Virus record (IMG/VR): IMGVR_UViG_3300021425_000021
DNA from: an uncultured virus (IMG/VR IMGVR_UViG_3300021425_000021)
Lineage: Duplodnaviria; Heunggongvirae; Uroviricota; Caudoviricetes
Length of the DNA: 20,000 nt
Direction: 5' to 3' (one strand)
Shown here: one piece after another, positions 2,350 to 19,651 of the stretch
How the letters are laid out: the number at the start of each line of letters is the position of its first letter
How positions within the stretch are numbered: position 1 is the first letter of the stretch
Notes under the pieces: generated by a model
Told to the model about the DNA's origin: nothing
What the model saw: only the letters and a program-made list of their open reading frames with translations
Database searches by the model: none
Translations under genes and position numbers: made by a program

Positions 2350-3362
2350 TAAAAATCACCAAATGGGTTTGTAGAATCGAAAGCTGTTATGCTATCAGCG
2401 ATCTCTTCAATCTGGTCATTACTAGAATAACCTGTGTTATTGTTTTCACTAATAGAAAGTATAGTGGCTGTTTGTCCAGATGTTTTTCCGGTAATGGTTC
2501 CAGCGCTAAACGTAACAAACTTATTCGATTCATTACGCACATTTGATACATGCATAAGATTTATGTTATTACCATTCGATAATTTTTGGATTTCAGCAGT
2601 AACAGTATTTGAGCCAACAGTTTGAGAGACTAATTCACCGTCGGTAAATCCTGATACCGAATCAACCGTAAGTATATACTCAGTGGCAAATTTATGTTCA
2701 TCAATTCCAATATCATCAAGATCCATATTTTCTCCGGAGTACTCAAAGAGTGAGGCGTTAAGTTTATATACCGGAAGATTATTGAGTTGATAAAAAGGTT
2801 TTTCATGCTCAACGAAGGTAATTTCAAAAATAGTATTAGATGCTGGCATATAGATAAGATCACCTTCTCGAGGACGAGAAAACTCATCTATATTAGTTCC
2901 ACTTAAAACAGGATCTTCTTGACTATTATTTGAATCATGTCTTGAGAGTATGACATTTGGACCTTCGATACTCACGGTTCTAGATTTAATTATATTGCCA
3001 GCACGGTCTAATGTTTCAATTCTATCTGTAGCGGTAGGAAGAAACCCTTGGGCTACTACACTTTCCCATCTACTCTTTGCAACAACAAATGTAGCTTCGT
3101 CGCGAATCTCTACGCCAAACTTTTGGAATATATCGCCGCTATCAAATCCTGTTTTATTTTCAATATACATTTCGATTTGTAACGAGTTTTTAAATTTAGA
3201 GAAAATGTCTTCTCCAAAAATATTATCTTTCGTTACAATTTCTCGCGGCACATAATGATAATCTTGGCCATATATTTTTAAGGCCTCAATAATAAGATTC
3301 TCATATAGACTTTGTTGAGTACTAAGCCCGCCGCTTTCAGTAAAATTTGGATTGAGTGCCAT
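2349..3362 (-). CDS. gp14: Neck protein (T4 gp14-like)
   Basis: MALNPNF, ENLIIEALKIYGQD..YVPRE, KFGVEIRDEATFVV, RPREGDLIY, FEITFVEHEKPFYQL and C-terminal NPFGDF. Confidence 0.95.
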   Translation of the reverse strand: MALNPNFTESGGLSTQQSLYENLIIEALKIYGQDYHYVPREIVTKDNIFGEDIFSKFKNSLQIEMYIENKTGFDSGDIFQKFGVEIRDEATFVVAKSRWESVVAQGFLPTATDRIETLDRAGNIIKSRTVSIEGPNVILSRHDSNNSQEDPVLSGTNIDEFSRPREGDLIYMPASNTIFEITFVEHEKPFYQLNNLPVYKLNASLFEYSGENMDLDDIGIDEHKFATEYILTVDSVSGFTDGELVSQTVGSNTVTAEIQKLSNGNNINLMHVSNVRNESNKFVTFSAGTITGKTSGQTATILSISENNNTGYSSNDQIEEIADSITAFDSTNPFGDF

Positions 3363-3366
3363 TTAC

Positions 3367-4116
3367 TTATCCAATAAAAAAATCAACCGGCGGTTGATAC
3401 CTGCGTTGCATCTCGTCTTCGAGCTCAGCTTGACGCGCTTTTCCTTCATTATAAATTGTAGTGCCGTCCATAGTAATACCACCAATTAGTTCAACACCGT
3501 TAAACTTAATTAGATTTAGACCCCATTGCTTTTGTATTAAAGCTTGAGCATATGCCTTTAGCCAACGGTCATTCCACGCATTTGCGGTTGCGGCTGGATC
3601 AATGAAGCGATATCCACGTGTTACGATATAGTCTCCAGGCTTAACATCGTCATCCCAATCAAGTTGAATATTTAATTTATTTTCGTAACGTGAATATTGA
3701 AAATGATCTATACCCTGAAATAAATCATCTAAAAGGCCAAGATATTGTCTGGCTTGTACGTATGTAGTAACACCGCCCGAAAATGATAAATCAAATAAGT
3801 CATTCAAATGTAATTGATACTCAATGTTGAACAGAGAGCTATCAAAACCAGACCTTTGATTAATTGGAATTACTCGAGTAATATATGCTACATTGTTTCC
3901 AACCGTGATATATTCATTATCAATGTCCGTTTGAGTCAGTTGTGTTTTAAAATAGTCTTCAACTAACGCATCTACATGAAACTCTTGCCAATATTGAATA
4001 GCATCATCAATACGATCTTCAACTTGATTATCAGATACATTGATTTCTAGAACATCTTTACCAAGTGCTCTTAAGCAGAATTCTTTAAAATCAGTGCGTG
4101 TTCCTGGCTGTGCCAT
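3367..4116 (-). CDS. gp13: Neck protein (T4 gp13-like)
   Basis: KEFCLRALG..VLEINV...QVEDRIDDAIQ, WNDRWLKAYAQALIQKQWGLNLIKF.GVEL.GG and C-terminal PPVDFFIG. Upstream AAAAGGA ribosome-binding site. Confidence 0.96.
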   Translation of the reverse strand: MAQPGTRTDFKEFCLRALGKDVLEINVSDNQVEDRIDDAIQYWQEFHVDALVEDYFKTQLTQTDIDNEYITVGNNVAYITRVIPINQRSGFDSSLFNIEYQLHLNDLFDLSFSGGVTTYVQARQYLGLLDDLFQGIDHFQYSRYENKLNIQLDWDDDVKPGDYIVTRGYRFIDPAATANAWNDRWLKAYAQALIQKQWGLNLIKFNGVELIGGITMDGTTIYNEGKARQAELEDEMQRRYQPPVDFFIG

Positions 4117-4136
4117 TAATGTATCCTTTTAGAATA

Positions 4137-4144
4137 TATTTATA
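4137..4144 (-). promoter_or_regulatory. T4-type late promoter (TATAAATA) for gp13
   Basis: Exact motif 20 bp upstream of the gp13 ATG, overlapping the upstream gene's stop codon and followed by an SD-like AAAAGGA. Confidence 0.8.
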
Positions 4145-4559
4145 TGATCCTATCAAGTACAAGAGTGATAGTACCATCATCTTGAACAGTTCCTTCGCCA
4201 TCACGTATTTCAAAAAAGATTTGAGAAGTTGCTGAGTTAGTACCAGTGAGAGACCAGGTGCGTGATGATGTGAGAGCTTGCCATGTATTGAGCGTGCCTG
4301 ATGGTGTTGAACCACTACTAAGAGTTGCTCGTATCTCATAGTCGCCTGGGGCAGATGACTTTGGATCGACCCAATCACCTAACGAAGCTGAAGGCGTGCC
4401 AGACGGCGCAACAATGTCACCGTCAGATTGAAACTGCACAGAAGCAGTATTTGTTCCCGAAACAAACTGAGTCGTGATAGTTCTTGTAGGAACTCTGATA
4501 ACATCAGCCGGCTCTGCCGAGTTAATACACTGCGCCAGCATATGAAGAATCATACTCAT
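4140..4559 (-). CDS. Small Ser/Thr/Gly-rich beta-type protein; putative fibre-tip or fibre-associated subunit
   Basis: 139-aa ORF coupled to the fibre gene (TAATG), with a short hydrophobic N-terminus (MSMILHMLA). Function is inferred from position and composition only. Confidence 0.6.
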   Translation of the reverse strand: MSMILHMLAQCINSAEPADVIRVPTRTITTQFVSGTNTASVQFQSDGDIVAPSGTPSASLGDWVDPKSSAPGDYEIRATLSSGSTPSGTLNTWQALTSSRTWSLTGTNSATSQIFFEIRDGEGTVQDDGTITLVLDRII

Positions 4560-6877
4560 TAAGTTAGATTTCCAAATACATGACAGTCTGTGCTAGTACG
4601 AAATAATACCGCCATAGTACTATTTCCTGCCAAAGTTACTGAAGCAGTATTAGCACCATTAAAGAACATAGACAAACCAGATCCACGCGTAATAGTTCTA
4701 GAAGTACTTCCAGTACTAATGATAACAATATCACGTCCTGTAAAGGTTCCACTTGGTATTGTTATATCACCATCCGCGAATACAACTGTATTAGCATCAG
4801 CCGATGTAATAGAAGTACGAGACGCTCCGGTAGATCGTCCAGTTATGGTGTCAGCGGTAAAGTCACCACTAACATCAACGTCGGTTGGCAAGCCAATAGT
4901 AACAGTAGAACCTTCTGATCCAGAACCAGATACTTCTACTTCATTGGCTGTTCCAGCGATTGTTGCAATATAATTACCTGTTGTGTTTGTTCCTAAAGCA
5001 ACTGCATTATTTGTTATTGTTGCGGTCAATGTTCCAGAAGCAAGATTCGTAAGAGTAACTGATCCGCTTAAGTCTCCGGCAAGAGTAATGACCGGATCAG
5101 GAATATTAGTAAAGTTTGCAAACTCTAGGTAATGTGATCCTTGTTGACCATCGAGTAAATCAGCATCTAAGCCAGAAGTAGCACCATCATTGCCAGCATG
5201 CCAAATAACGTTATTAGTATTATTATCTCTAATATATACGCTTGATACGTTTCCATTATCTATGCCAGAAAATATATGAGAACCTTCTGTTTCAATGAAA
5301 AGAGAACCACCGTTTTGTCTGATGCGCGATTCGTCAGATCCAGAGCCTTGATCAGTTTCATTAAGAATAATTCTAGGCTCAGCCAAAGAAACTGTTAAGT
5401 TACCGGTGATAGTTCCACCGGTAGAAGCTAAGTAACTTAGGGCTGGAATTCTTGCTGAGTCAAATGTGCCTGTTGTAACCTTTGACGCATCAAGACTAGG
5501 GATTCTAGCGGAGGCAAAGGTTCCGGTAGTAATTTTTGATGTGTCTAGACTTGGAATACGAGATGCTGAAAACGTTCCAGAAGTAATCTTTGACGCGTCA
5601 AGACTAGGGATTCTAGCTAAGGCAAGGGTTCCGGTAGTAATGTCAGCCGCATCATGAGTTTGAGCAGTTAGCTCTTGCTGAACAAATTCTGTAGTTGCTA
5701 ATCGTGTTGAATCATTACCGGTCGCCTGTGTTACTGCGGTTGGGTTTCCGGTAAAAGTAGGAGAAGCCAATGGCGCTTTCAAATCTAATGCCGTTTGAAG
5801 ACCATCAATATTACCAATCACATGGTTATGAGAATCATCGACAATAGAAACTGTAAGAGTACCAGACGCAAGATTTGTTAGCGTCACACTACCTGTCGCA
5901 TCACCCGCTAAGGTTATGACTGGATCAGCAACATTTGTCAGATTAGTAAAGTCTAAGTAGTATGATCCTTCTTGACCGTCAAGTAAGTCAGCGTCTAGTC
6001 CCGATCCAGAACCAGCGGCAAATCTAGCGGTTGGAATAGTTCCAGAGCTAAGATTACTTGCGTTAGTGTAGTAGCTACCTTGTTGACCATCGAGTAAATC
6101 GGCATCTAGACCAGAAGCAGCGCCATCATTACCAGCATGCCATACTGTATTCGATGATACTGCCAACACACCGGTCGATGTGTTCCACGTAAAATTAGAA
6201 TTACCTTCGATCGTACCATCACCCGTCCATACCGCAACTTGATTATCTGCTGGCGTACCAACTTTTAAAACATCACCGCCACCAGAAGCAGCAACTGCGC
6301 TTTGTACGAATTGGGTTGTAGCAATTTGAGCTGTAGAAGTTCCAGACGTAGCAGTTGGCGCCGTAGGAGTTCCGGTCAAAGCCGGTGAAGCTAGGGTAGC
6401 ATATGTGCCAAAGTCAGAAATCTGCGACTCAGTAATTGATAGAGCGGCTTGATGTTGAGTGACATTTGACTGCGCAATTCGAGCATCTAAAAAGGTGCCA
6501 GAAGTAATAGCGCTTGTAGATAAACTTAAACTGCCGATTTCCTGCTGAACAAATGCTGTAGTAGCTATTTGTGTAGTATTAGTCGATCCAGAAGCAGTTG
6601 GTGCCGCTGGCGTTCCAGTAAAAGTAGGAGAGGCTAACGATGCTTTACCTGCTAAGTCAGCATCAACCTCATTAATAGCAACAACTAAGTTGCCGTTGGC
6701 GGTTGTTGTAAGTGATGATAACGTGCCAATCTCGCCATCAATTTCGTTAATTGCGGTTGCAACACTAGTTGCCGTAGTCGTAAGAGTAGAGATTTCGCCT
6801 ACGTCTGTCACGAAAAGATTATATTGATCTGCCCATGCACCGAGTAGTGTTGAATCTGTTACTGATCTATCTGCCAT
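4559..6877 (-). CDS. Repeat-rich tail fibre-like protein (772 aa)
   Basis: Contains motifs typical of phage fibres: TLTTTA..V..AINE x2, LASP.FTG.P.APT...T.IATT.FVQ x3, GLDADLLDGQ x3, DPVITLAGD..GSVTLTNLASGTLT x2 and RIPSLD.SK.T.GTF x3. It occupies the slot between the baseplate and neck genes. Confidence 0.85.
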   Translation of the reverse strand: MADRSVTDSTLLGAWADQYNLFVTDVGEISTLTTTATSVATAINEIDGEIGTLSSLTTTANGNLVVAINEVDADLAGKASLASPTFTGTPAAPTASGSTNTTQIATTAFVQQEIGSLSLSTSAITSGTFLDARIAQSNVTQHQAALSITESQISDFGTYATLASPALTGTPTAPTATSGTSTAQIATTQFVQSAVAASGGGDVLKVGTPADNQVAVWTGDGTIEGNSNFTWNTSTGVLAVSSNTVWHAGNDGAASGLDADLLDGQQGSYYTNASNLSSGTIPTARFAAGSGSGLDADLLDGQEGSYYLDFTNLTNVADPVITLAGDATGSVTLTNLASGTLTVSIVDDSHNHVIGNIDGLQTALDLKAPLASPTFTGNPTAVTQATGNDSTRLATTEFVQQELTAQTHDAADITTGTLALARIPSLDASKITSGTFSASRIPSLDTSKITTGTFASARIPSLDASKVTTGTFDSARIPALSYLASTGGTITGNLTVSLAEPRIILNETDQGSGSDESRIRQNGGSLFIETEGSHIFSGIDNGNVSSVYIRDNNTNNVIWHAGNDGATSGLDADLLDGQQGSHYLEFANFTNIPDPVITLAGDLSGSVTLTNLASGTLTATITNNAVALGTNTTGNYIATIAGTANEVEVSGSGSEGSTVTIGLPTDVDVSGDFTADTITGRSTGASRTSITSADANTVVFADGDITIPSGTFTGRDIVIISTGSTSRTITRGSGLSMFFNGANTASVTLAGNSTMAVLFRTSTDCHVFGNLT
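5141..6142 (-). repeat. Dispersed ~60-bp direct repeat encoding WHAGNDGA.SGLDADLLDGQQ (copies at ~5141-5203 and ~6080-6142; a partial third copy at ~5960-6005)
   Basis: tgttgaccatcgagtaaatc occurs at 5142 and 6081 (939 bp apart, in frame), with high identity continuing through ccagcatgcca. Confidence 0.85.
5445..5650 (-). repeat. Coding tandem repeat, 54-bp (18-aa) unit, ~3.5-4 copies
   Basis: Units RIPSLDASKITSGTFSAS / RIPSLDTSKITTGTFASA / RIPSLDASKVTTGTFDSA. The DNA tttgacgc.tcaagactagggattctagc recurs at 5481 and 5589, 108 bp apart. Confidence 0.9.
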
Positions 6878-7082
6878 TCTTTAACTCTTGAACTGTGCTG
6901 TTTAACTTATTTATCTGCTCACGTAATTCATTTAATTCTGTTCTAAGCATTTTTAGCTCTATGTCTTTTTCTCTTTGAGCCGATGCTATTTGCCTCGCTG
7001 CCTCTAACTTTTTCCTATTGACAGAAACAATTGCTCCATCTTTATTACGCCTAAGATCAGGTTTACCTTCAACTTTTAACAT
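6867..7082 (-). CDS. Small coiled-coil protein of a type seen after VrlC-like genes in T4-like phages
   Basis: KVEG.PDL.R...GAIV N-terminus plus a heptad C-terminus (ELKMLRTELNELREQINKL). Coupled to the upstream gene by TAATG. Confidence 0.75.
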   Translation of the reverse strand: MLKVEGKPDLRRNKDGAIVSVNRKKLEAARQIASAQREKDIELKMLRTELNELREQINKLNSTVQELKNGR

Positions 7083-9181
7083 TATGTAGCTAAAGCAATA
7101 CTTCTAAAGTCAGTGAGACGAGGAACATCTGACGTTGTTGGTGAACGGAATACTAATTTATATTGATAACGTGTAAATGGATCTAGCGTAGTCGTCGTTG
7201 TTGGTATTGTATATTCGTACTCACGGAATATTTCAATATTATCATCGGCTGGTATGACTTCGTCTGGAGTCGCTAGTGTCCAATCAACTTCAGTGAGATC
7301 TACATCATCGCCAGAATTAGCTACACGGAAGTAAAGGTCAATGAATGTTCCACTAGGACGATTAGCGGCAAAGAATACTTTTAGGCCAATTGCCTCTTCA
7401 TTAAGAGTAATTGCTTTAAATATATGTTTAGCTGTAGCCGTACCACCCGTCGCATCTGTTTCTGCGACATATATTTCAGGAGTATTATAACCAGCTGTCG
7501 ATCCTGAAGCTTCCTGATTATCAATGCGGTTTCTAATTACGCCGGCCGACATTCTAGATAAGTCAATTACCGGAGCAACAAAGTTTGAAGTGCTTGATAG
7601 AGTTGCTCTCATCGTAAGTGATTTTTTGCCAGCACCTAGGTTTGTGGTTTCGTTTACTGTTGAAGCAACAACCTGTGGTCCTTCAAATGTGTTATTTTTA
7701 TTGATTAGCATACTTGAAAATGTACTATCTTTTACATATTCAGTTTCTTGCTGTGAAGGTGAAGCACCGGTCGTAGTTTTAAATGCCCAATCAACTGTGG
7801 CATTTGGATGACTTAGCTGATTTATATTTGGATATAAAGTATCAAATTGATTTTGGCCTGTTGCGAATCCATTTGAACCACCACCGGATACTGCGCTTGT
7901 ACTTGTTGCGGCCGAAACTACGATAGTAAAGCTATCAAAGTCTTCAGCATCTGCGACAGTATGCGTAGTATTTAATTGGCCAGCGGTAATACCACCTACC
8001 GCGGTAAGGCCACTAAATGTTACGGATGAACCATTCGTAAGACCATGATTAGGCATAGTTACTCGAATAGTTGGAGCGGCTTGAACATTCGTTACGCGAA
8101 TTGAATCGGTGGCTAATGCAACCTCTGGTAAACTTACGTTTTCGAAATATGCTACAGTGTTTGTGCCGATATTAAACTCAGCTCTATTAAGTCTAAACAT
8201 TAAGTCGCGAGATTGGTCAGGCGTCCATGTAGATCCATTCTGAGATTTAAAGAAAGAACCAAGTGTTGGTTGTTGCATTACACGTTGTGTAGTTGAACCA
8301 AACAAAAACTCGGTAACTGCTGCAGTCCAAGCTTCATAATCAAGTGATTCAGAAATAACAACAATGGCATATTCATTTAGTCCGTTGAGATATATTGGTG
8401 CCGGAAACGTAAACTTTGTTAGTGCTGCTCGACCAGAAGGACTATTCGGATCGGTCGTAGTATTAACATCAGCCGCAGCAACCATCACCTCACCACCAGG
8501 TACAGGTTGATTTGTTGGTATACCATTTACCATTGGACGTATTTGAACACGAACAGGTTGCCCACCCGTAGTTGGTTTAGTTCTAAAGAACAAGTCAACC
8601 GAAGTTATATATACTCCGGTTTCTCGTTCAACCAAAAAGCTTTGTGCAATTGGATCGATCCAAACAACTGGTTGCGGAGATGGCTGTGGACGTATCGTAG
8701 TAACCTGAGTACTTTGTGTTTCCAATGTACCTTGCGCAGTATATGTAGAAAATGCTGAAGAAACGGCATCATCATCAGTAGTAGCCACAGAATCACGTAC
8801 TTTAAATTCACGAGCACCGGTTCTAAATCGAATAGAATCCGTATTTGGAATAAAGAACGAACCTTCAATCGTACCATTTGCGTCAGAAATTAGATTACTA
8901 GAAGTTTCTGGATGACCAGATAGAAACTCAGTTTCATTATTTCCGGTCAAATCGTCAGCAACATCTGCCATAAATTGGAATGCTTCTTCACGACACCAGT
9001 CAGAAACATCTACTCCATCAAAAAACGGAGTATGTTGCATATTAGGCAGTAAGCCTTCAATCTTAAAAAAAACTTTTCTTGAACGAATAAATGGAATAAG
9101 CGTAGTACTAACTGTTATAGTATCAGTTGTTTGCGTAATTCCTCCTGGTAAGGAAATAGTCGTGACTCGTGGCGTTAGCAT
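7082..9181 (-). CDS. VrlC/DUF4815-like virion structural protein, C-terminal half
   Basis: IPFIRSRKVFFK, FFDGVDV, DPIAQSF, GVYITSVDLFF, GSFFKSQNGSTWTPDQ..DLMF.L.RAEF and C-terminal PRLTDFRSIALAT. Confidence 0.85.
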   Translation of the reverse strand: MLTPRVTTISLPGGITQTTDTITVSTTLIPFIRSRKVFFKIEGLLPNMQHTPFFDGVDVSDWCREEAFQFMADVADDLTGNNETEFLSGHPETSSNLISDANGTIEGSFFIPNTDSIRFRTGAREFKVRDSVATTDDDAVSSAFSTYTAQGTLETQSTQVTTIRPQPSPQPVVWIDPIAQSFLVERETGVYITSVDLFFRTKPTTGGQPVRVQIRPMVNGIPTNQPVPGGEVMVAAADVNTTTDPNSPSGRAALTKFTFPAPIYLNGLNEYAIVVISESLDYEAWTAAVTEFLFGSTTQRVMQQPTLGSFFKSQNGSTWTPDQSRDLMFRLNRAEFNIGTNTVAYFENVSLPEVALATDSIRVTNVQAAPTIRVTMPNHGLTNGSSVTFSGLTAVGGITAGQLNTTHTVADAEDFDSFTIVVSAATSTSAVSGGGSNGFATGQNQFDTLYPNINQLSHPNATVDWAFKTTTGASPSQQETEYVKDSTFSSMLINKNNTFEGPQVVASTVNETTNLGAGKKSLTMRATLSSTSNFVAPVIDLSRMSAGVIRNRIDNQEASGSTAGYNTPEIYVAETDATGGTATAKHIFKAITLNEEAIGLKVFFAANRPSGTFIDLYFRVANSGDDVDLTEVDWTLATPDEVIPADDNIEIFREYEYTIPTTTTTLDPFTRYQYKLVFRSPTTSDVPRLTDFRSIALAT

Positions 9182-9219: not shown

Positions 9220-12200
9220 TTAAAACCGTACGCGCTCAAATTCATTTAGAGCACCACCACCGCCTGAACTCCATGGATCAACAACTGGTGGCGTATTATC
9301 AGTTATGTTATCATCACCGGTCCAATTCCAATTCCAGTTATCCCAGTTATCGTCAAGATTAGGAGATACCACCGGTGTTCCGGTGCCTGGATTTAAACTA
9401 CCAACTTGTGTAACCGCGGTCGTTGTGGTTTCAACATCTCTCCATTCATCTGAATCTGGAGAAAGTGTAATAAAGCCAATACCGGTTGTGATAGCGTAAG
9501 GATTAACATTCACTACGCTTGATGCCTGAAGCTGTTCTGTTTCAGCAACTTCAGTATATTGCATGAATAATTGATCGCCCTTTTTAATAACGTTATTTGA
9601 TATATCGTTATCGCCGCTTGTTGATTTGTAAATTAGGCGTGTATTCTTTTCAACAAATTCGGCACGAACTTCACCAAGACGTGGATTAATTGATGAACGA
9701 TTATTAGGATTATCAACATCTGAGAACCTATGGTCATCAAAGGAATCTACAAAAAAGCCAGCTTGAAATCTGCTGTTACCATTTGCGTCAATAACGTTTA
9801 GGTTAGAAGTTTCATTTTCAAGCAATGATAGAGTAGACCATTCTTCAACACGAGAAATACGAGACTCAAGTCTACCGATATCTCTCATTGTGTAGCGCTT
9901 ATTTTCAATGAAGCTCATTCCAACATCTAATTGGTCTAGAGTACCTGGACCAAAACGAACTACATATAGTGGCATCACATCATTTGGAATTGGCGGTGGA
10001 ACCGGCGTTTTTGAAGAAATGCCTTTTGCAAATCCAAAGTTACCTTCAGAAGAAAGATATAGGATATCAGTACGAGGAAGATAGAAAGTGACGTCAGCTT
10101 GTATAGCTTCACCGTTAAGAGGTATCTCATTAACCAACGCGCCAGCTGTGCTATAGTCAGTGTTATCATCGTCAATAACAGGTCGGAAATCAAATACTTC
10201 AGCTAGGAAAACACTAACACCATCAGGTCTTACAAATGTTGGAATATTAGTATATGAATATGACGGATCTGAAATAAATGAGTTATATGAATCAACATTG
10301 AAATAATCGCCAGCGCCATGCTGAAAATATTTAAATGTAACTTTTACATTTCCGCTTGGGGCAGAAGCACCAGATTTCAGCTTTAGCTTACCAATTTGAT
10401 AAGAATTCGTACGTTGACCATTATCAAGTGTGTAACGATTGGTAATATCAGCATCGCCATCACTAACATCTTTTACTACGTCAATGACATAGATATCATG
10501 CTGACCTAAGCTAACTTCATTGGTTCCAACACCACCAGTTCCTGGAGTAATTACTGAATCGGTAACGGTCGTAAGAGTTTTACTTCGTGCTGAAGTTGTA
10601 GTAGTCGTTTTATCTACATATGCTATAAGTGTATGAGCGGTTGATGCCGCTAATCCAGAAAGTGTAATTGTTTGTAAACCAGCCGTAGTAGCTGATACTG
10701 TAACAATAGTACCTGAATTATTTACAAGAATCCATCCAGCAGTATTAGCCCATGTTACATTCGAATCAAGGGTATCGAGCGTCTCATTGCCAGAACCGTC
10801 AGTAGTAAAAGTAATACGTCGCTGTGCTCTTACTGTAATATCTTGAATAGTTTGTATACGCGACCGCAACATTGGAAACAGTAATGTGTTATTCGCCGTA
10901 TCTTTTAATTTAGCATTATCGCTTGTGAGTACGTTACCAGCATCATCAATAATGTTCGCTTCAAATCCAGTAGCTTGAAGATCGCGAACTTCATTAAAGC
11001 CTTTTGCAGAATTCATTGAAACATCAAAAAGATAGAAATGATAAATTGAAGCTGACTTATATTCAACAGCACGAACTCTTGCTGTACCAATTGTAGCATT
11101 AGTCGAATCTCTAAGATTAACTAACTCAAATGTAGAAATATCTGGTAGACCAGTCGGAGCTGAAGTCCGAACATAATTACCAAATGTCACTGGAATACTA
11201 GCGTTATTTTGAGTTTCTGTATCTAGAGCTCGATCATGAATAATATTTGTTGATGTATATTTTTCAATTTCATAACCACGAACATATGCTTTACCGGGAT
11301 CGGCAACGAATGTAAGTTTCGTATCATCGCCTGATGTCAATTCGCTGTGAATAATAAATGGATCGACTGTATAGTTCCCAGACTCATCGAATGTTCGACG
11401 TGCTAACTCATCACCAATTAAAGAGTATTGAGTTCTAGTCAGTGACTGTACTACACGTGTACCTTTAATGATCGCGATCGTAAAGTAATCTACGTCAACA
11501 TCACCATTCGTATCTTCAATGTCTGATTTTTTTGTAAGTGTCAGTGCGTATTTAAGACGATCGGCGCCTGGAGCATTTACATTATTTGTTCCGGCCGCGT
11601 TTGAAAGAAGTGAGCTATCGCTTCCGGAAGTAACAATACTTTCGCCAACAACGAGTCCAACCTCAAACTCATCAGATGCAACTCCATATTTTTCTAGAAT
11701 AAGTGATTGCGATGTAGCAACAACAAAGAATCCATTAACAAAGTAAATACCTTTATCAAGATTCGCTTTTGTTCCTGTGCCAGTTGCAGATGCCGCGGCA
11801 ACAGTAAATGCTCCACTCGATCCACCATTAGGATTTGTAAATGTAAGTGTTTCGCTATTTTGAAACCGGCCACCAGTGCCAGATCCACCGTCGGTATAAC
11901 GTATGTATAGAGTCGCAGGATCTGATCCAGCGGCCGCTACAGCTTGAATTAAAATAGCAGTGATTCCGCTAGTGCCACCTACAACAGTGGCTCCAGCTTG
12001 GATACTAGAAATATCAACATCTTGAACCTTCACAAACTCATAATTAGAATCAACTGAGATTCCACCAGGAATAACAACAGTGCCATCTTTAAAAATATTT
12101 TGACCAAACCGAGTAATTTGATTCTGCAAAATAGTTTGAAGTTGAGTTAGCTCTCGCGCTTGAACTGCCCGAGAAGGCCTAAATAGGAGTCTATGAAAAC

Positions 12201-12255
12201 CTTTATCTTCATTAAAGTCATCATAGTATGGTGCGAGACTAGTATCAATTGCCAT
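9220..12255 (-). CDS. VrlC/DUF4815-like virion structural protein, N-terminal half
   Basis: PYYDDF...K.FHR.LFRP...VQARELTQLQTILQNQI..FG..IFKDG, APGADRLK, LARRTFDESGNYTV.PF, PGKAYVRGYE, NKRYTMRDIGRLE.RI, GFFVDSF and VNVNPY; it follows gp8. Confidence 0.88.
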   Translation of the reverse strand: MAIDTSLAPYYDDFNEDKGFHRLLFRPSRAVQARELTQLQTILQNQITRFGQNIFKDGTVVIPGGISVDSNYEFVKVQDVDISSIQAGATVVGGTSGITAILIQAVAAAGSDPATLYIRYTDGGSGTGGRFQNSETLTFTNPNGGSSGAFTVAAASATGTGTKANLDKGIYFVNGFFVVATSQSLILEKYGVASDEFEVGLVVGESIVTSGSDSSLLSNAAGTNNVNAPGADRLKYALTLTKKSDIEDTNGDVDVDYFTIAIIKGTRVVQSLTRTQYSLIGDELARRTFDESGNYTVDPFIIHSELTSGDDTKLTFVADPGKAYVRGYEIEKYTSTNIIHDRALDTETQNNASIPVTFGNYVRTSAPTGLPDISTFELVNLRDSTNATIGTARVRAVEYKSASIYHFYLFDVSMNSAKGFNEVRDLQATGFEANIIDDAGNVLTSDNAKLKDTANNTLLFPMLRSRIQTIQDITVRAQRRITFTTDGSGNETLDTLDSNVTWANTAGWILVNNSGTIVTVSATTAGLQTITLSGLAASTAHTLIAYVDKTTTTTSARSKTLTTVTDSVITPGTGGVGTNEVSLGQHDIYVIDVVKDVSDGDADITNRYTLDNGQRTNSYQIGKLKLKSGASAPSGNVKVTFKYFQHGAGDYFNVDSYNSFISDPSYSYTNIPTFVRPDGVSVFLAEVFDFRPVIDDDNTDYSTAGALVNEIPLNGEAIQADVTFYLPRTDILYLSSEGNFGFAKGISSKTPVPPPIPNDVMPLYVVRFGPGTLDQLDVGMSFIENKRYTMRDIGRLESRISRVEEWSTLSLLENETSNLNVIDANGNSRFQAGFFVDSFDDHRFSDVDNPNNRSSINPRLGEVRAEFVEKNTRLIYKSTSGDNDISNNVIKKGDQLFMQYTEVAETEQLQASSVVNVNPYAITTGIGFITLSPDSDEWRDVETTTTAVTQVGSLNPGTGTPVVSPNLDDNWDNWNWNWTGDDNITDNTPPVVDPWSSGGGGALNEFERVRF

Positions 12256-13883: not shown

Positions 13884-14111
13884 TTATGGAAGAAGATCAT
13901 CATCATTTTCGATTTCTTCTTCGGGCTCTTCTTCTGGTTCTGGCAAATTGTAAAATGTTCTAGCCTCTTCTTCGGTATCAAACCAACGCCAACCTCCTTC
14001 GGTTGGATATGTATACGAATCCTTTTCTTCTTTTATAAGGGTATACGTTGGCGCAAACACAAAGTTAGGAGCTTCAAAAAGTTCTTCATCTTCGACTCTA
14101 AAAAATGACAT
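13884..14111 (-). CDS. Small acidic hypothetical protein (75 aa) following the LRR genes
   Basis: Probable start is the ATG at 14111 (MSFFRVEDEELFEAPNFV...YTYPTEGGWRWFDTEEEA), 4 nt after the LRR gene stop. The longer start in the ORF track overlaps the LRR gene. Confidence 0.7.
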   Translation of the reverse strand: MSFFRVEDEELFEAPNFVFAPTYTLIKEEKDSYTYPTEGGWRWFDTEEEARTFYNLPEPEEEPEEEIENDDDLLP

Positions 14112-14115
14112 AATA

Positions 14116-16443
14116 TTATCCTGACACGGTCCAGTTTTTATTTGTTGCGATTGATGTGTTAACAGCAGGATCATCATGGCCCCACTGATTAGAAATAGTT
14201 ATGGTTCTACCAGTAGCACCAGTGAGGTCTGGTAGATTAGTGAAAACATTATTAAGTTCATTAGCATCTAATTTTCCAAAAGGAATATAAAAGTTTTGTG
14301 TTAGTCCGGTAACCTTACATTTAATTATCGAAGACATATTATTACCAAACGTATGATTATTTATTAATGTTACTCCGCTGAGGTCTAATTCTGGCACTTC
14401 CTTTAAACTTCTATTAACATAAAATATATCTCGTATATCATTTACATTATGAAAATTTTCAATCTTTGGTATATATTCTAAAGCAGGGCAATAATAAAAC
14501 ATATATCTTGCTGTTATATTAGAAAGTGATGTAGGTAAGATAATTTTCGGTGCAACCCGCATGCAATAATTTTCGCGAAATAAATTTTCCATATCAGGAT
14601 AAGTTAAGCTCGATAAATCCATTAACCTAGGATATCGTTTTAACGAAAAGCATCTATAAAACATGTGCTCTACATTTGCACAATTACTTAAGTCCATATC
14701 TGGAACAGATTCTAAAGATCTGCAATCATAAAACATATGGCTTGTGGTTATTATTTTTCCAGACGTAAAATCGTAACTATCAGATAAGCTAGTAAGAGAA
14801 AGACACTCTCTAAATGTATTAACAAAATTAGTACACCGCGTTGTATCAAACGCTGGCACCTGCGCTAATGATCTGCACACATAAAACATACTTTGTGCCG
14901 ACAGCGGCGCGGAATTAGACATGTCAATATCTATTCTTTTCAAAGCGTGGCAATGCGAAAACATTTCGTGGGTTCTTGCTAAATTATGCATAGGCGAACC
15001 GGTAACATTTTTTAGATAATAACATCTTTCAAACATCGAGTGCGCATCTACTAAATTTGGCGCATGAATTTCTATATTTTCTAAGCCATAACATGAATAA
15101 AACATATTAATAGCATTGCCCAGCTTAGGCGCATTAATAACAAAATTTCGTTCGAACCTCAGATTATGACAATCATAAAATAACTGAGTGGCGTTTTGTA
15201 GATTTTCAAATACAAATGTACTCGGAATTTCCTTTAATGCGTGACAGGAATTAAACAACCGATTAGCATATGATAATTTTTTATTAAACTTAACATCAAC
15301 TCGCTCGAGATTATAACAATTAGAAAATAAACTGTATATTCGACTAGCATTTGATAAATCTAAATTAGGAGCACAAATAATATTATAACATTGTTCAAAC
15401 GTCGATACTGCATCCCCCACAGATGAAAAATCGTATTTTGGTATATTTTTTAAAGAATAACAACCCAAAAACATATAATTAACATCAGTTATATGGCTAG
15501 TATTTAAATTTTCCGGAGGATGAGTTAAACTTGTACAATATGCAAATAAGCTATTAAGGCTATACGTAGATGAGGGTATATTGAGCACTGGAACAGATCT
15601 AAGAGATCTGCATCCAGTAAACATGTAATTTAGTTCTGATATTCCCAAATTAAATCCAGAAAAAGTTTCCAGTCTATCAGCTCTACCATATCGGTCTATT
15701 TGTGTACCGCTTGAATCATATAATCTAAAGATTGAAACTATAGATAAGTTTACGTGTATATCCAAATACGCATACATATGCGCATCGGATGAACTAATTT
15801 CATTTGGCAAAGTAAAAGGATTAAAATAAAAATAAGAACAAAGACCATTGAATGTAACAAGAATTACAGCTTGTTTATATGGCAATAAATTAGTAGTGCC
15901 AGTAGAATCAAATGTAATTGGTGTTCCATTCTTTTCTTCGGAAATTTGAAATGTATCAGTAGTCGGGTTTACGATATAATATTCTTTATATTCCGAAATA
16001 TTAGTTGGACCCACCACATCATTTAAAGTAATTTTATAGCCTGAAGGATAGCCATGAGAGCTTCGATTTATTGTATTTGTGCCAATAGTAGCGGGTGCAT
16101 TTGTATCATCGAATGCACTATTTGAACTTTGATATACATGTTCTGGAAAAAAATTACCAGTACCTTGTGGATCAAATGTCTCAACTGTACCATCTCCCCA
16201 ATCAACCGTACAGGTGGCAGGTATAATTGAGGATGCCTCATGTAATCGAAGAACTAAATTTACATATGTTTCGCCTGGATCAATTGCGACCAATGCAGCA
16301 ACCTTTTCACCATCTTGAACATTTGGCATTGCTAACCAACTTGGATTACGAACCCAATCATCACCTAAAGTGTCATTGAACTCATAGTCACTATTCAGTC
16401 CAGTATTTTCTATTTTTTTACTATTTAAGTTTGTAACCGTCAT
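14116..16443 (-). CDS. BspA/DUF285-type leucine-rich-repeat protein with a PKD-like (DWGDG) N-terminal region; paralogue 2
   Basis: About 17 repeats of ~23-25 aa with core xxMF/LFxxCxxLxxxP (e.g. NYMFTGCRSLRSVP, SHMFYDCRSLESVP), VDWGDG, and C-cap IATNKNWTVSG. Start placed at the ATGA overlap with the upstream stop (16443). Confidence 0.85.
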   Translation of the reverse strand: MTVTNLNSKKIENTGLNSDYEFNDTLGDDWVRNPSWLAMPNVQDGEKVAALVAIDPGETYVNLVLRLHEASSIIPATCTVDWGDGTVETFDPQGTGNFFPEHVYQSSNSAFDDTNAPATIGTNTINRSSHGYPSGYKITLNDVVGPTNISEYKEYYIVNPTTDTFQISEEKNGTPITFDSTGTTNLLPYKQAVILVTFNGLCSYFYFNPFTLPNEISSSDAHMYAYLDIHVNLSIVSIFRLYDSSGTQIDRYGRADRLETFSGFNLGISELNYMFTGCRSLRSVPVLNIPSSTYSLNSLFAYCTSLTHPPENLNTSHITDVNYMFLGCYSLKNIPKYDFSSVGDAVSTFEQCYNIICAPNLDLSNASRIYSLFSNCYNLERVDVKFNKKLSYANRLFNSCHALKEIPSTFVFENLQNATQLFYDCHNLRFERNFVINAPKLGNAINMFYSCYGLENIEIHAPNLVDAHSMFERCYYLKNVTGSPMHNLARTHEMFSHCHALKRIDIDMSNSAPLSAQSMFYVCRSLAQVPAFDTTRCTNFVNTFRECLSLTSLSDSYDFTSGKIITTSHMFYDCRSLESVPDMDLSNCANVEHMFYRCFSLKRYPRLMDLSSLTYPDMENLFRENYCMRVAPKIILPTSLSNITARYMFYYCPALEYIPKIENFHNVNDIRDIFYVNRSLKEVPELDLSGVTLINNHTFGNNMSSIIKCKVTGLTQNFYIPFGKLDANELNNVFTNLPDLTGATGRTITISNQWGHDDPAVNTSIATNKNWTVSG

Positions 16444-18701
16444 CCTGTCACTGTCCATCCCTTTGCGGTTGCAATTGTAGGATCATCATATAATCTGCCT
16501 CGGTTATTACTTATATTTATCGTTTTTCCGGAAACAGTAGGCAAATAAGTATAAAACTCATTGAGGCCTTCTCCGGTCATATAAAGTCTTTGTAAATATA
16601 TATTATTTGTAAATGTGGCCCTAAGTTTACGTAGTGCAAATGAATTTAGAAAAACCTGTTCATTATTAACCACTGAACTAAAATCACCTTTAATGTCATG
16701 AATTCTAGAGCGCCCGCCATACGTAGCGCCAGCAATTGCTAGTGAAGCTTCAGTTGCAAGTGGAGCGTTAAATTCTAGTTTTTCCATACTCATCGAATTA
16801 TAGAATGCATAATCTATTCTAGTTGCCTTTGGAACTGTTATTCGCATAGTCTTAAGACTATAGCAATTTTGAAATACTTGATTAAATGTTAAAACTTCTG
16901 GAATATTGTCAAATGCCACTGACTTAAGAGAAAAGCAATTTCTAAACGATCTATATAAGTCTTGTACAAGAGGAAGACTATTGTTTGTTATTTCTACTCG
17001 CTCTAAAGAATAGCAATCATACGCTAAATGATCTAGATCAGTAGCCGCGGCAAAGTTAAAATTAGGAAGAGTTTTAAGACGTCTCATGCCATAAAAAAGA
17101 TATCTAGCATTTCCGCCAGTGATTGCGCTTACATCAAAGACATCTATACTTTTCATAGATCGCGCATTCGTATAAGCTTGATATGCTGATATTGAGAGCG
17201 CAGATGAAGTTATAATTTTTGCTTTTTGAAGCATGTGACAGTCATTAAACATGTAATCTATTCTTGTTACATTAGGAATATTTATGTCATAGCGAATATT
17301 CTTAAGTGTATAGGCGTATCGAAAGCACTGATCTGTTTGAGTCACACTACTAAAATCAAAATAAGGAAGATTGCCCTTTAATCCAACATACTCAAAGGTT
17401 CTATGAAAAGTTGTATTAGAGCTCGTGTCATATGCTGGAATATGACATAAAGATCGCATATAGCCAAATGCTTGTTGAAAGCGTGTGACGCCGCTAGTAT
17501 TAAAATATGGAAGTGTAGATGCTTGTGTACTACCGTAAAAAGAATTATATAAATTAGTTGGAGCAGTATTATAACCTGGAACTGCCTGTAGTGAATAATT
17601 TTGGTTATGAATGCTTTGAATATCTACAGTACTTTGTAGATTTTTATGTGCCTCTACATTAACTCTTTTAATATTCATGCAGTTTTGAAAACAACTATGT
17701 AATCGTGAAATTTGACCATGTGAATCATAATTTGGTATTTCTCTTAAGCTAAAGCAATTTCCAAAATATAAGTATTGATCACCGGTAACTGTCCACGGAA
17801 GATCTGGTATATGCTGAATACTATAATTTTCATAGAACATTAGATTATTGCTAACACCAGAACCAGTGTATAAGCCAAATGTTAAAGATCTAAGAGAATG
17901 CATAGACCGAAAAACATCAGTAAAATGATTCGGTGAGCCTAAATGTACAGCATTCATCTTTTCAATTAAAAGAGGTTGAGCCTCATCACCATTAGACCCG
18001 TGATCAATATCTGTTGCGTTTGGTAAAGAAAACGCAATATCTCTAAAATTAGAAACGTATCTATATAGAGATAGGCTATGTTTAAGATCAGTCCTAACGC
18101 CAGTGATAATAGCATCTCCAACCGGAGTAATTGTTATTACAGCCTGCTTATATGGAAGAATTACACCTGTTCCAGACGCAATAGTAATAGGACTACCGCC
18201 TTCAGATAAAGCTAGTTGAAATGTATTTGATTGCGCATTTACCACATAGTAATAAACTAATCTTTCGATAGTACTAACTGAGCTTTCATAGAAAGATATA
18301 CGATCATCATTTGAATAGCCATGATTTGTTAATGTAACGGTATCAGAGCCAAACGTAACAGGTTTGTTTGTTCCATCTAGATTGCTATCATTATAATCAT
18401 ATGTATGTTCTGCGGTAGCATTCGAATTATATGTCTGAACGGTGCCATCTCCCCAATCAACTTGTGATTGGCCACCAGACGTAGTTACTTGGACTCGAAC
18501 ATGATTCATGGTCGTGTCTTCAATGCTCATAAGACCAGCATAAATTTCATCAGAGCTAGTAATAGTGGGCAAATCTAGCCAGTGTTGATTCCGTTGCCAC
18601 ACATCAACAATTGGATTTGGAGTCATGTCATAATAAGTATTAGTCGTTCTTTTAATAGAACGTTCTGAGCTTCTACATTTATGAAGCCGCTTAATACTCA
18701 T
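16440..18701 (-). CDS. BspA/DUF285-type leucine-rich-repeat protein with a PKD-like (DWGDG) N-terminal region; paralogue 1
   Basis: Repeats such as YFGNCFSLREIP, CFQNCMNIKRV, MFNDCHMLQKA, SFRNCFSLKSV and VFQNCYSLKTM; VDWGDG; LPYKQAVI; C-cap IATAKGWTVTG. Confidence 0.85.
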   Translation of the reverse strand: MSIKRLHKCRSSERSIKRTTNTYYDMTPNPIVDVWQRNQHWLDLPTITSSDEIYAGLMSIEDTTMNHVRVQVTTSGGQSQVDWGDGTVQTYNSNATAEHTYDYNDSNLDGTNKPVTFGSDTVTLTNHGYSNDDRISFYESSVSTIERLVYYYVVNAQSNTFQLALSEGGSPITIASGTGVILPYKQAVITITPVGDAIITGVRTDLKHSLSLYRYVSNFRDIAFSLPNATDIDHGSNGDEAQPLLIEKMNAVHLGSPNHFTDVFRSMHSLRSLTFGLYTGSGVSNNLMFYENYSIQHIPDLPWTVTGDQYLYFGNCFSLREIPNYDSHGQISRLHSCFQNCMNIKRVNVEAHKNLQSTVDIQSIHNQNYSLQAVPGYNTAPTNLYNSFYGSTQASTLPYFNTSGVTRFQQAFGYMRSLCHIPAYDTSSNTTFHRTFEYVGLKGNLPYFDFSSVTQTDQCFRYAYTLKNIRYDINIPNVTRIDYMFNDCHMLQKAKIITSSALSISAYQAYTNARSMKSIDVFDVSAITGGNARYLFYGMRRLKTLPNFNFAAATDLDHLAYDCYSLERVEITNNSLPLVQDLYRSFRNCFSLKSVAFDNIPEVLTFNQVFQNCYSLKTMRITVPKATRIDYAFYNSMSMEKLEFNAPLATEASLAIAGATYGGRSRIHDIKGDFSSVVNNEQVFLNSFALRKLRATFTNNIYLQRLYMTGEGLNEFYTYLPTVSGKTINISNNRGRLYDDPTIATAKGWTVTG

Positions 18702-19028
18702 TTAGACTATTTCTGAACCAAAGAGAGAAAAGGTGTTTGTTGCCTGATCACCATAAACTGAAACAACGTCTCCAGCAGATAGCGTAATTCCAATTGTAAG
18801 AAACACGCTATCGCGAGAATCTACCCAATTGTCATATACAATATAATGACTATCAGCAATTGACGCACCGCCCGGTCTAATCGCAACACGAAAAGAAGAA
18901 GTGTTCGCTCGTGAACACACTGCCAACGTTGAGCATACTGCGTTGGTTGCAGCCGGTACAGTATATAGATCAGTAAGCGTATTTGCGGCAGGAGCTACCT
19001 GACCAAGTATTTTATATGTTGTTGCCAT
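18702..19028 (-). CDS. Small beta-sandwich-like hypothetical protein (MATTYKILGQ...LYTVP type)
   Basis: 108-aa ORF coupled at both ends, with motifs TDLYTVP, YIVYD, GITLSAGD and FSLFGSEI. I recall this type from uncultured phage tail regions; not verified. Confidence 0.75.
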   Translation of the reverse strand: MATTYKILGQVAPAANTLTDLYTVPAATNAVCSTLAVCSRANTSSFRVAIRPGGASIADSHYIVYDNWVDSRDSVFLTIGITLSAGDVVSVYGDQATNTFSLFGSEIV

Positions 19029-19243
19029 TATGCACCCATAAGTAAGAACGAATGTAAATCATCACCGGATGGCCCGGTTGGTCCAGTAAGAGAATAACTC
19101 AAATCGTTCCATGTTGTTGAGCCATCGCCTATTTTAATTTGTCCAGTATCTGTATTAATACCAGGCTCACCCGCAGCTAGAACTGGATTAGCCGCGGCCC
19201 AGGTAGAAGCCGTATCTCTGCGTAATTGAATTCGTGTTGCCAT
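19028..19243 (-). CDS. Stand-alone Mtd_N-like (major tropism determinant N-terminal) domain protein
   Basis: IQLRRDTA..W...NPVLA.GE.G..TDT...KIGDG.T.WNDL.Y is the Mtd_N-type signature. It is followed only by GPTGPSG and FLLMGA*. Confidence 0.85.
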   Translation of the reverse strand: MATRIQLRRDTASTWAAANPVLAAGEPGINTDTGQIKIGDGSTTWNDLSYSLTGPTGPSGDDLHSFLLMGA

Positions 19244-19461
19244 TAATCTATGTCTCCATCCAATGTACTAAAATGAGACGCATTAGCATCTCCACCATCG
19301 TATATAATATCTTTATCATCATTATCAATAGCTCCGCCACCATGCGCTATTTCGGTTGTATTCGTACGCCAACGATTCTTTAGCGTTTCGAATTTAAAAT
19401 TAATACCACCTACAGTAACAATATCACCATCTAAAGGGTTAGAAGGAAAATCAATTGCCAT
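19243..19461 (-). CDS. Small hypothetical protein (MAIDFP type)
   Basis: Probable start is the ATG at 19461 (MAIDFPSNPLDGDIVTVGG...W); acidic C-terminus with YDGGDA...LDG; coupled to the next gene by TAATG. Confidence 0.7.
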   Translation of the reverse strand: MAIDFPSNPLDGDIVTVGGINFKFETLKNRWRTNTTEIAHGGGAIDNDDKDIIYDGGDANASHFSTLDGDID

Positions 19462-19651
19462 ATTGGTTAGCGTAGCTTTCACATGCTTTTGTCATGACAA
19501 ATTGGACATAATCCAAATCTGTGGCTTTATAGTCATCATGATCTTCTAGGACCTGATCTTCTTCTAAAGCTAGTGCATTATTATATGCATCGCGCGCTGA
19601 AGTCAATCCGGCTAAAAGATTATCTTCGGTAATAGTAATTGTAAAGTCCAT
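19451..19651 (-). CDS. Small acidic hypothetical protein
   Basis: 66-aa ORF with a strong GAGGA ribosome-binding site and TAATG coupling to the upstream gene. Confidence 0.75.
   Translation of the reverse strand: MDFTITITEDNLLAGLTSARDAYNNALALEEDQVLEDHDDYKATDLDYVQFVMTKACESYANQYGN

Follow-up and report, generated by a model that had tools for sequence, protein, structure and literature searches.

The long tail fibre of T4 (gp34-gp35-gp36-gp37) is put together end to end from several products, arranged as their genes are, with a small joint protein linking segments, while in the branched tailspikes of CBA120 (TSP1-4) and G7C (gp63.1/gp66) adaptor domains mount further, separately encoded receptor-binding proteins. 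Here we describe a chain of five genes in a 20,000-nucleotide (nt) stretch of DNA from an uncultured virus of the Caudoviricetes (IMG/VR record IMGVR_UViG_3300021425_000021; the whole stretch is called the window below), and we suggest, with moderate confidence, that their products belong to one tail appendage, a colinear fibre whose members are joined by the docking of short peptides on domains. Similarly to the T4 fibre, such an appendage would be an end-to-end chain in gene order with a small joint protein, and the phage of the window is itself T4-like (gp8, gp13, gp14, gp15, terminase); unlike in T4, the segments shrink here to a head plus a tail, and the junction motifs are common to myo-, sipho- and podophages. 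No homology to gp34, gp35, gp36 or gp37 was found for the five chain proteins in Pfam and PHROG scans. The tailspikes of CBA120 and G7C carry T4 gp10-like domains, whereas none was detected here by the Pfam scan; over Pfam and PHROG together, at E values up to 0.01 and on sequence profiles only, the five proteins matched no gp10 or branching-domain family.

The closest described docking system is that of three podophages of Klebsiella, KP32, K11 and KP34, in which the receptor-binding protein RBP1 has a branching domain and RBP2 a docking peptide that is conserved (Latka et al., 2026; PMC13352976). A short conserved N-terminal peptide on a separate receptor-binding protein docks there on a domain of another tail protein and the cargo is exchangeable, as we propose for the window. 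However, the socket is a domain inside RBP1, whereas here it would be a free-standing jelly roll of 108 amino acids (aa) held by the C-terminal peptide of the preceding protein, and binding was established there by experiment, whereas here it is proposed from sequence; in Pfam and PHROG scans the two systems had no sequence family in common. In a preprint on Goslar (Chimalliviridae), filaments of DUF7941 proteins are reported, some members of which bear leucine-rich repeat (LRR) or carbohydrate-binding cargo (bioRxiv 10.64898/2026.04.21.720040); these filaments differ in belonging to another protein family, confined by the preprint's account to chimalliviruses, and in being homo- or heteropolymers of many copies, whereas the window would encode a defined series of different connector types. 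No DUF7941 was among the Pfam matches of the chain proteins, the presence of a DUF7941 model in the Pfam copy used being unconfirmed. Miller et al. (2008; PMC2408619) report trimers of Mtd at the tail-fibre ends of Bordetella phage BPP-1. The receptor-binding Mtd has the N-terminal domain that gave Mtd_N its name, and in BPP-1 (NC_005357) mtd directly follows the fibre gene bbp9, whose end, GLADLGGIA, resembles the DGG tail described below, so the C-terminus of Bbp9 may contact the N-terminus of Mtd; the Mtd_N protein of the window, by contrast, lacks a receptor-binding body and carries only a second connector. The statement in a preliminary description of this DNA that no such system had been described was too strong, since docking peptides and multi-protein fibres are published (KP32/K11/KP34; Goslar DUF7941). 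The concept of a docking-peptide fibre is thus not new, but these particular connector pairs appear to be; the literature searched, which comprised sources outside subscription journals, contained no description of the FLLMGA tail, of these connector pairs or of a phage DUF285 fibre system.

The chain lies on the minus strand, upstream of gp8 in the direction of transcription, and has the following features:

19243..19461, minus strand: 72-aa connector starting MAIDFP, with an INFP/IDFP-type head (about residues 1-33), a Gly-rich linker and a two-part DGG tail.
19246..19302, minus strand: DGG tail peptide of the 72-aa protein, IIYDGGDANASHFSTLDGDID (YDGGDA...LDGDID at the stop), a C-terminal motif.
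19028..19243, minus strand: 71-aa connector with an Mtd_N head (Pfam PF18454, E 7.2e-18), two collagen-like triplets and an FLLMGA tail; C-terminus GPTGPSGDDLHSFLLMGA.
19031..19048, minus strand: FLLMGA C-terminal tail peptide of the 71-aa protein, of the motif class found upstream of MATTYK genes.
18702..19028, minus strand: 108-aa MATTYK protein, a predicted eight-stranded jelly roll (AlphaFold2 pLDDT, the predicted local distance difference test, 95.8) without a Pfam family; proposed joint between tail peptide and cargo leader.
16440..18701, minus strand: LRR1, a 753-aa DUF285/BspA-type LRR protein (Pfam DUF285 8.8e-14, LRR_5 1.5e-09), presumed receptor-binding cargo.
18606..18701, minus strand: N-terminal leader and linker of LRR1, residues 1-32, beginning MSIKRLHKCRSSERSIK, with pLDDT below 50 and the leader motif.
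14116..16443, minus strand: LRR2, a second DUF285 protein (Pfam DUF285) with the leader-like start MTVTNLNSKKI, ATGA-coupled to LRR1.

In gene order, the junctions read TAATG, TAATG, TAA-ATG and ATGA. The start of the 72-aa protein was taken at the ATG of MAIDFP, because homologues begin MAINFP, although the mechanically called open reading frame (ORF) reaches a GTG at 19482. LRR1 scores 51.7 bits with DUF285 and 38.3 bits with LRR_5, and LRR2 78.7 bits with DUF285, both proteins lying above the Pfam gathering score. The coupled small genes and LRR genes listed in the preliminary description, with the termini quoted there, are all present on the minus strand, and its remark that the first two products carry no cargo domain holds as well, each being composed of an N-terminal head, a Gly-rich or collagen-like linker and a tail. 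It had further claimed that three adjacencies (DGG tail then Mtd_N, LLMGA tail then MATTYK, MATTYK then leader) recur in other phages, and had named a lack of enrichment as evidence against the idea; in independently fetched loci, all three junctions proved to be enriched.

The second junction is the most regular. We fetched 79 IMG/VR loci through an alignment of MATTYK proteins, added the window and phage phiPsal1, and called ORFs mechanically; a regular expression found 77 MATTYK genes and missed the divergent copy of P-SSM2 as well as eight loci with tail-bearing upstream ORFs. An ORF ending within 80 nt upstream was present for 74 of the 77 genes, and 68 of these 74 ORFs end in an FLLMGA-like tail (loosely, [FLMIV][FLMTV][LMTF][MILSAG]G[AGMIV] at the stop), the strict form occurring in 46. 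Among all 4415 mechanical ORFs of at least 40 aa, pooled from all sources, only 80 fit the loose pattern, namely the 68 adjoining ones, eight that end at about position 6000 of their loci, the site of a MATTYK match missed by the expression, and four located 2.5-3 kb upstream of a MATTYK gene. The 66 distinct tail-bearing proteins range from 42 to 1748 aa, their 63 bodies of at least 45 aa fall into 15 BLAST clusters, and a Gly-rich or collagen-like linker precedes the tail. Moreover, at three loci (L022, L072, L077) an LMLGGM tail is kept on an Mtd_N protein even though MATTYK lies 2.9 kb away, behind four genes on the opposite strand. All six Leu codons and both Phe codons are used freely in the tail, which indicates that selection acts on its protein sequence.

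Fibres of 330 and 1073 aa align with the 71-aa protein; their Mtd_N head and FLLMGA end are the same, but they have long collagen shafts, and in other lineages equally short head-plus-tail proteins (42-86 aa) stand before MATTYK. Given that their heads are shared with long shafted fibres, the 71-aa and 72-aa proteins are best read, from such alignments, as shaft-less head-plus-tail fibre segments. Tandem pairs of complete cassettes, each composed of a tail-bearing protein, MATTYK and a leader-bearing cargo, were seen at L043, L044, L070 and L071. At four other loci (L214, L220, L193, L104) short hydrophobic tails ending in AMAIVFGG, ISAQVFS, AVQIFR or PLILALS are followed by proteins of 107-123 aa starting MAAPNIV, MATFTK, MATYSK or MPNTFK; these pairs may be further tail and jelly-roll subfamilies.

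At the first junction, the MAIDFP family is small, with 14 matches in 1.84 billion representatives. Six members of 59-75 aa were examined, and the five of 72-75 aa share an INFP head, a Gly linker and the terminal pattern Y[DE]xGxA...L[DEN]GG[ST][SA], which the tail of the 72-aa protein fits; the INFP head also opens long fibres of up to 777 aa. The MAIDFP protein had no tblastn match in 50,697 phage records, and an IMG/VR scan with the family returned generic INFP-headed fibres only, none with a DGG tail. The full chain is repeated in the metagenome contigs L110, L111 and L112, whose first proteins are 96, 43 and 42% identical to that of the window (L113 is incomplete), and a second LRR gene is also present downstream in L112; these contigs are relatives of the window and not independent cases. 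In the next protein, residues 5-43 match Mtd_N (PF18454) with 64.7 bits against a cut-off of 26.3, and, in a test of this assignment, the profile of alignment A5 matched HylP structures (e.g., 6x3m at 1.3e-15). We collected 80 IMG/VR loci through the Mtd_N head, in which a regular expression gave 57 Mtd_N-starting ORFs, 48 of them distinct and 45 with an upstream ORF. Of these 45 upstream ORFs, 31 have a C-terminal two-part [DN][GAS]G motif, as compared to 21 of 703 other genes, and several of the 14 misses keep one half of it. Five cultured phages were picked by hand from the spread of 657 records with Mtd_N, and in four of them a DGG-type end precedes the Mtd_N gene: in Javan474 (an S. pyogenes prophage) an endopeptidase ending in ILDGGN is followed by hyaluronate lyase, the Mtd_N fibre of Arthrobacter phage Constance is preceded by a protein of 70 aa whose DGG tail has two parts, and such an end is also present in Gordonia phage Splinter and Xanthomonas phage Bosa; the fifth, S-RIM2, has no DGG-type end at this position. 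At the other end of such proteins, 18 of 49 distinct Mtd_N-headed proteins (loci L150-L228) terminate in W-V-V-x-G-D-L-x-A, and 5 of the 13 of these with a called downstream ORF precede genes starting MSKRAGR...NDFLQP or a close variant; this end could mark another conserved junction, or it could just be the final strand of an end domain that these proteins share.

At the third junction, the ORF after MATTYK mostly overlaps the MATTYK stop by 1 or 4 nt. The leader M-[SA]-[IVF]-[RSKG]-x-[LAVIM] occurs in 34 of 62 distinct ORFs downstream of MATTYK and in 4 of 630 background genes of at least 100 aa. Pfam assigned 23 of 60 cargo proteins to DUF285/LRR, 19 to Gly_rich_2, 8 to Laminin_G_3 and 1 to fn3, and left 9 without a family; the leader is thus common to unrelated cargo. 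The AlphaFold2 model of LRR1 (mean pLDDT 83.9) has a confident body, whereas its leader of 32 residues stays below pLDDT 50, and such predicted disorder would suit a peptide that becomes ordered only on binding. Read-through or frameshifting was considered as a general mechanism that joins these ORFs and was rejected: MATTYK and LRR1 are in frame across a single TAA in the window, but elsewhere the overlap of 1 or 4 nt mostly sets them in different frames, and the spacing varies.

At least 2653 proteins of comparable length are homologous to MATTYK. The MATTYK protein itself matched no Pfam family in the Pfam scan, the ESM Atlas lists viral clusters only, without a family, and its PHROG matches are phrog_1276 (function unknown) and weak tail-fibre families, with no chaperone family and no Tfa/Caudo_TAP match. 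From 75 sequences, AlphaFold2 predicted an eight-stranded jelly-roll sandwich. Foldseek matched this model to satellite virus coat proteins (satellite tobacco mosaic virus, E 6.5e-4) and to the C-terminal domain of the Bdellovibrio Bd2133 fibre, and VIA-align, with Z scores of 8.0-9.8, to HDT1/nucleoplasmin, the trimeric KHP40 cement protein (Z 9.5), a virus turret protein and Ena pilus subunits, the best match having Z 9.8, a root-mean-square deviation of 2.5 and 92 aligned residues. Numerous look-alikes from phages are present in BFVD, and some of them bear the annotation of a virion structural protein; a MATTYK profile found nothing below E 0.19 among Protein Data Bank sequences, that is, no homologue with a solved structure. 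Longer relatives are rare (55 versus 2653) and include a fusion to DUF285 (P0125), a fusion to a beta-helix-like body (P0122) and one tandem MATTYK. In P0124, P0130, P0148, P0153 and P0159, one or more extra domains are inserted directly behind strand 1 (MATTYKVLGQ...), and the jelly roll thus serves in addition as a scaffold for the display of other domains.

Built on gene order, motifs, their enrichment and spread, and the predicted fold, the model that we favour is as follows. The 72-aa protein would anchor through its INFP head and present its C-terminal DGG tail, on which the Mtd_N head of the 71-aa protein would dock, presenting in turn the FLLMGA peptide. This peptide would dock on the jelly roll of MATTYK, which it would probably join as an extra beta strand; the jelly roll, itself probably oligomeric, would hold the flexible leader of LRR1 and perhaps also that of LRR2, so that the LRR proteins would be the receptor-binding cargo. 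The two tiny proteins would thereby convert one type of connector into another. The peptide docking put forward in the preliminary description is in part supported by the enrichment of the adjacencies, by the tail kept at a distance of 2.9 kb, by the leader shared among unrelated cargo, by the natural fusions and by the disordered LRR1 leader; what we postulate beyond this are the physical contacts themselves, the stoichiometry and oligomeric states, the strand addition, the location in the virion and the site at which the INFP head would be anchored.

Several observations weigh against this model. None of the computations demonstrated a contact; no conclusion is drawn from the score of 0.02 given to a complex of three MATTYK and three 71-aa chains, predicted from custom alignments without controls. 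The regular expressions were written after the data had been seen, so the junction enrichments are somewhat flattered, and many of the loci are related to each other. The leader motif is fuzzy, since 28 of the 62 downstream ORFs miss the expression, mostly as near-matches. Six of the 74 ORFs upstream of MATTYK lack the tail; for four of them (L022, L024, L072, L073) the ORF call is spurious, the true tail being located further upstream, but the gene of L079 and the second MATTYK of L043 have no tail upstream, nor does the MATTYK-like gene of HMO-2011, and at L216 the 3.3 kb after an LMLGGM tail contain no MATTYK. A codon bias marks the end of the tail, with GGA (45 of 64) and GCA (37 of 64) favoured as its last two codons; together they spell GGAG 5-9 nt ahead of the MATTYK start, and the conservation of G-A may therefore be due in part to a ribosome-binding site that serves translation. 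The structural matches of MATTYK are generic jelly rolls, and Z 9.8 is little above that of typical unmatched models, so the fold says nothing about oligomer or role. Finally, the contigs with the P0122 and P0125 fusions are short, so these fusions might be artefacts of assembly, and the "virion structural protein" label of the MATTYK relative in HTVC010P is given as it stands in the record.

Among the other explanations, the one that survives best, although we regard it as unlikely, sees MATTYK not as a load-bearing joint but as a knob that ends the upstream fibre or a helper in its assembly, recognised through FLLMGA, with the LRR proteins attaching elsewhere (e.g., to the baseplate) via their leaders. 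Jelly-roll knobs do terminate many fibres, and the weak fold matches of MATTYK include, besides the Bd2133 domain, the C-terminal part of the tail-fibre chain of Agrobacterium phage 7-7-1; the variants with whole domains inserted after strand 1 are what a display knob might look like, and small genes after fibre genes often encode chaperones. Nevertheless, the leader follows MATTYK regardless of the cargo family, and the natural fusions put MATTYK N-terminal to the cargo in one chain. Clients can be as small as 42 aa, a size at which no folding helper is needed, and the annotation of the HTVC010P relative as a virion protein and the position of the Endor1 gene between two minor tail genes also speak against this reading.

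A second explanation, to which we give little credence, holds that the conserved gene ends are signals in the nucleic acid and not docking peptides, acting either in ribosome binding or re-initiation for coupled translation, or as short homologous junctions that favour the recombination of modules. The GGAG spelled by the biased terminal codons, the TAATG or ATGA overlaps and the clear shuffling of the modules speak for it. The hydrophobic core of the tail, however, draws on the full set of Leu and Phe codons; the tail is retained 2.9 kb from MATTYK across genes of the opposite strand; in tail-bearing ORFs the distance from the stop to the next start ranges between -1 and +12 nt; and the DGG tail, at about 20 residues, is degenerate at the DNA level. 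Least probable of all, and hardly to be expected, is that the two tiny ORFs were left over from the decay of longer fibre genes and lack a function of their own: they do align with both ends of long fibres, the shaft being lost, and the MAIDFP family is rare, but L110, L111 and L112 have both ORFs in intact form and in synteny (first protein 42-96% identical), many lineages have 42-86-aa head-plus-tail proteins before MATTYK, and Constance has its own 70-aa DGG-tail protein before the Mtd_N fibre.

The jelly-roll junction, or a cousin of it, is also seen in cultured phages. The MATTYK-selected loci span 33-68% GC. In the siphophage phiPsal1, a protein ending in ALMLMGG is followed by a MASSYK protein and then by one starting MSIRSL; in the Streptomyces siphophage Endor1, the minor tail protein gp19, ending in QIMRIMGVW, precedes gp20 and the minor tail protein gp21, the pair lying after the tape measure gene. 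In the SAR11 phage HTVC010P, which we take to be a podophage, gp23 ends in TALAIALG and is followed by the MANTFK protein gp24, annotated as "virion structural protein", and the same TALAIALG end precedes a MANTFK protein in the myophage Melnitz; P-SSM2 is a more distant carrier. HTVC010P (L232) also encodes three paralogues of 205-217 aa (gp30-gp32; 3027-4985), of which gp31 starts MALVKYNN and gp32 MSIVKLNN; these starts resemble the cargo leader and lie about 2-3 kb downstream of gp24.

Tentatively, and with less assurance than for the window itself, we speculate that a small set of interoperable connectors is common to phages of all three tail types with hosts from the sea, fresh water and soil, namely the DGG tail with the Mtd_N head, the FLLMGA-type tail with a free-standing jelly-roll joint (MATTYK and its MANTFK-type cousins), and this joint with the M-S-I-R-type leader. 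If so, phages could recombine fibre segments, unrelated receptor-binding cargo and spacers of any length like standard parts, the two tiny genes of the window would be pure converters between connector standards, and a general rule for the wiring of multi-gene fibres could be read from sequence. Most tail-fibre genes of uncultured phages cannot be placed in a structure from their sequence alone; if the motifs mark which product sits on which, both the architecture of the fibre and the boundary between a conserved scaffold and exchangeable host recognition would become readable from genomes. Such a rule would reach a large set of phages, abundant marine ones included (Mtd_N is present in 657 phage records, and MATTYK has at least 2653 relatives), and many tiny "hypothetical" genes of tail modules would be explained as connector pieces.

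The window as a whole is a structural module of a T4-like marine myophage with all genes on the minus strand, and its likeness to the pelagimyophages HTVC008M and Mosig and to cyanomyophages is limited at the DNA level to short stretches. Pfam and PHROG scans recognised the large and small terminase subunits, gp15, gp14, gp13, a 772-aa fibre, a VrlC/DUF4815 protein and the gp8 wedge. The LRR genes have a lower G+C content (0.33-0.35), but G+C at third codon positions is uniform across the window (0.19-0.28), so we found no compositional sign of a recent foreign import of these genes and rejected that possibility. After LRR2, with a 4-nt spacer, lies a small acidic ORF (13884-14111, minus strand), probably starting with MSFFRV at 14111 and thus encoding 75 aa, with GGWRWFDTEEEARTFY near its end; small proteins ending in W..E..W-type motifs, like this one, also follow the cargo genes in L022, L072 and Melnitz, and the ORF may encode a fibre helper. 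The VrlC/DUF4815 homologue is split into two ORFs (7082-9181 and 9220-12255, minus strand), which match the N- and C-terminal parts of the same PHROG profile, phrog_358, and the 772-aa fibre (4559-6877, minus strand), which has matches in many tail-fibre families of PHROG, includes three copies of the motif GLDADLLDGQ.GS.Y.

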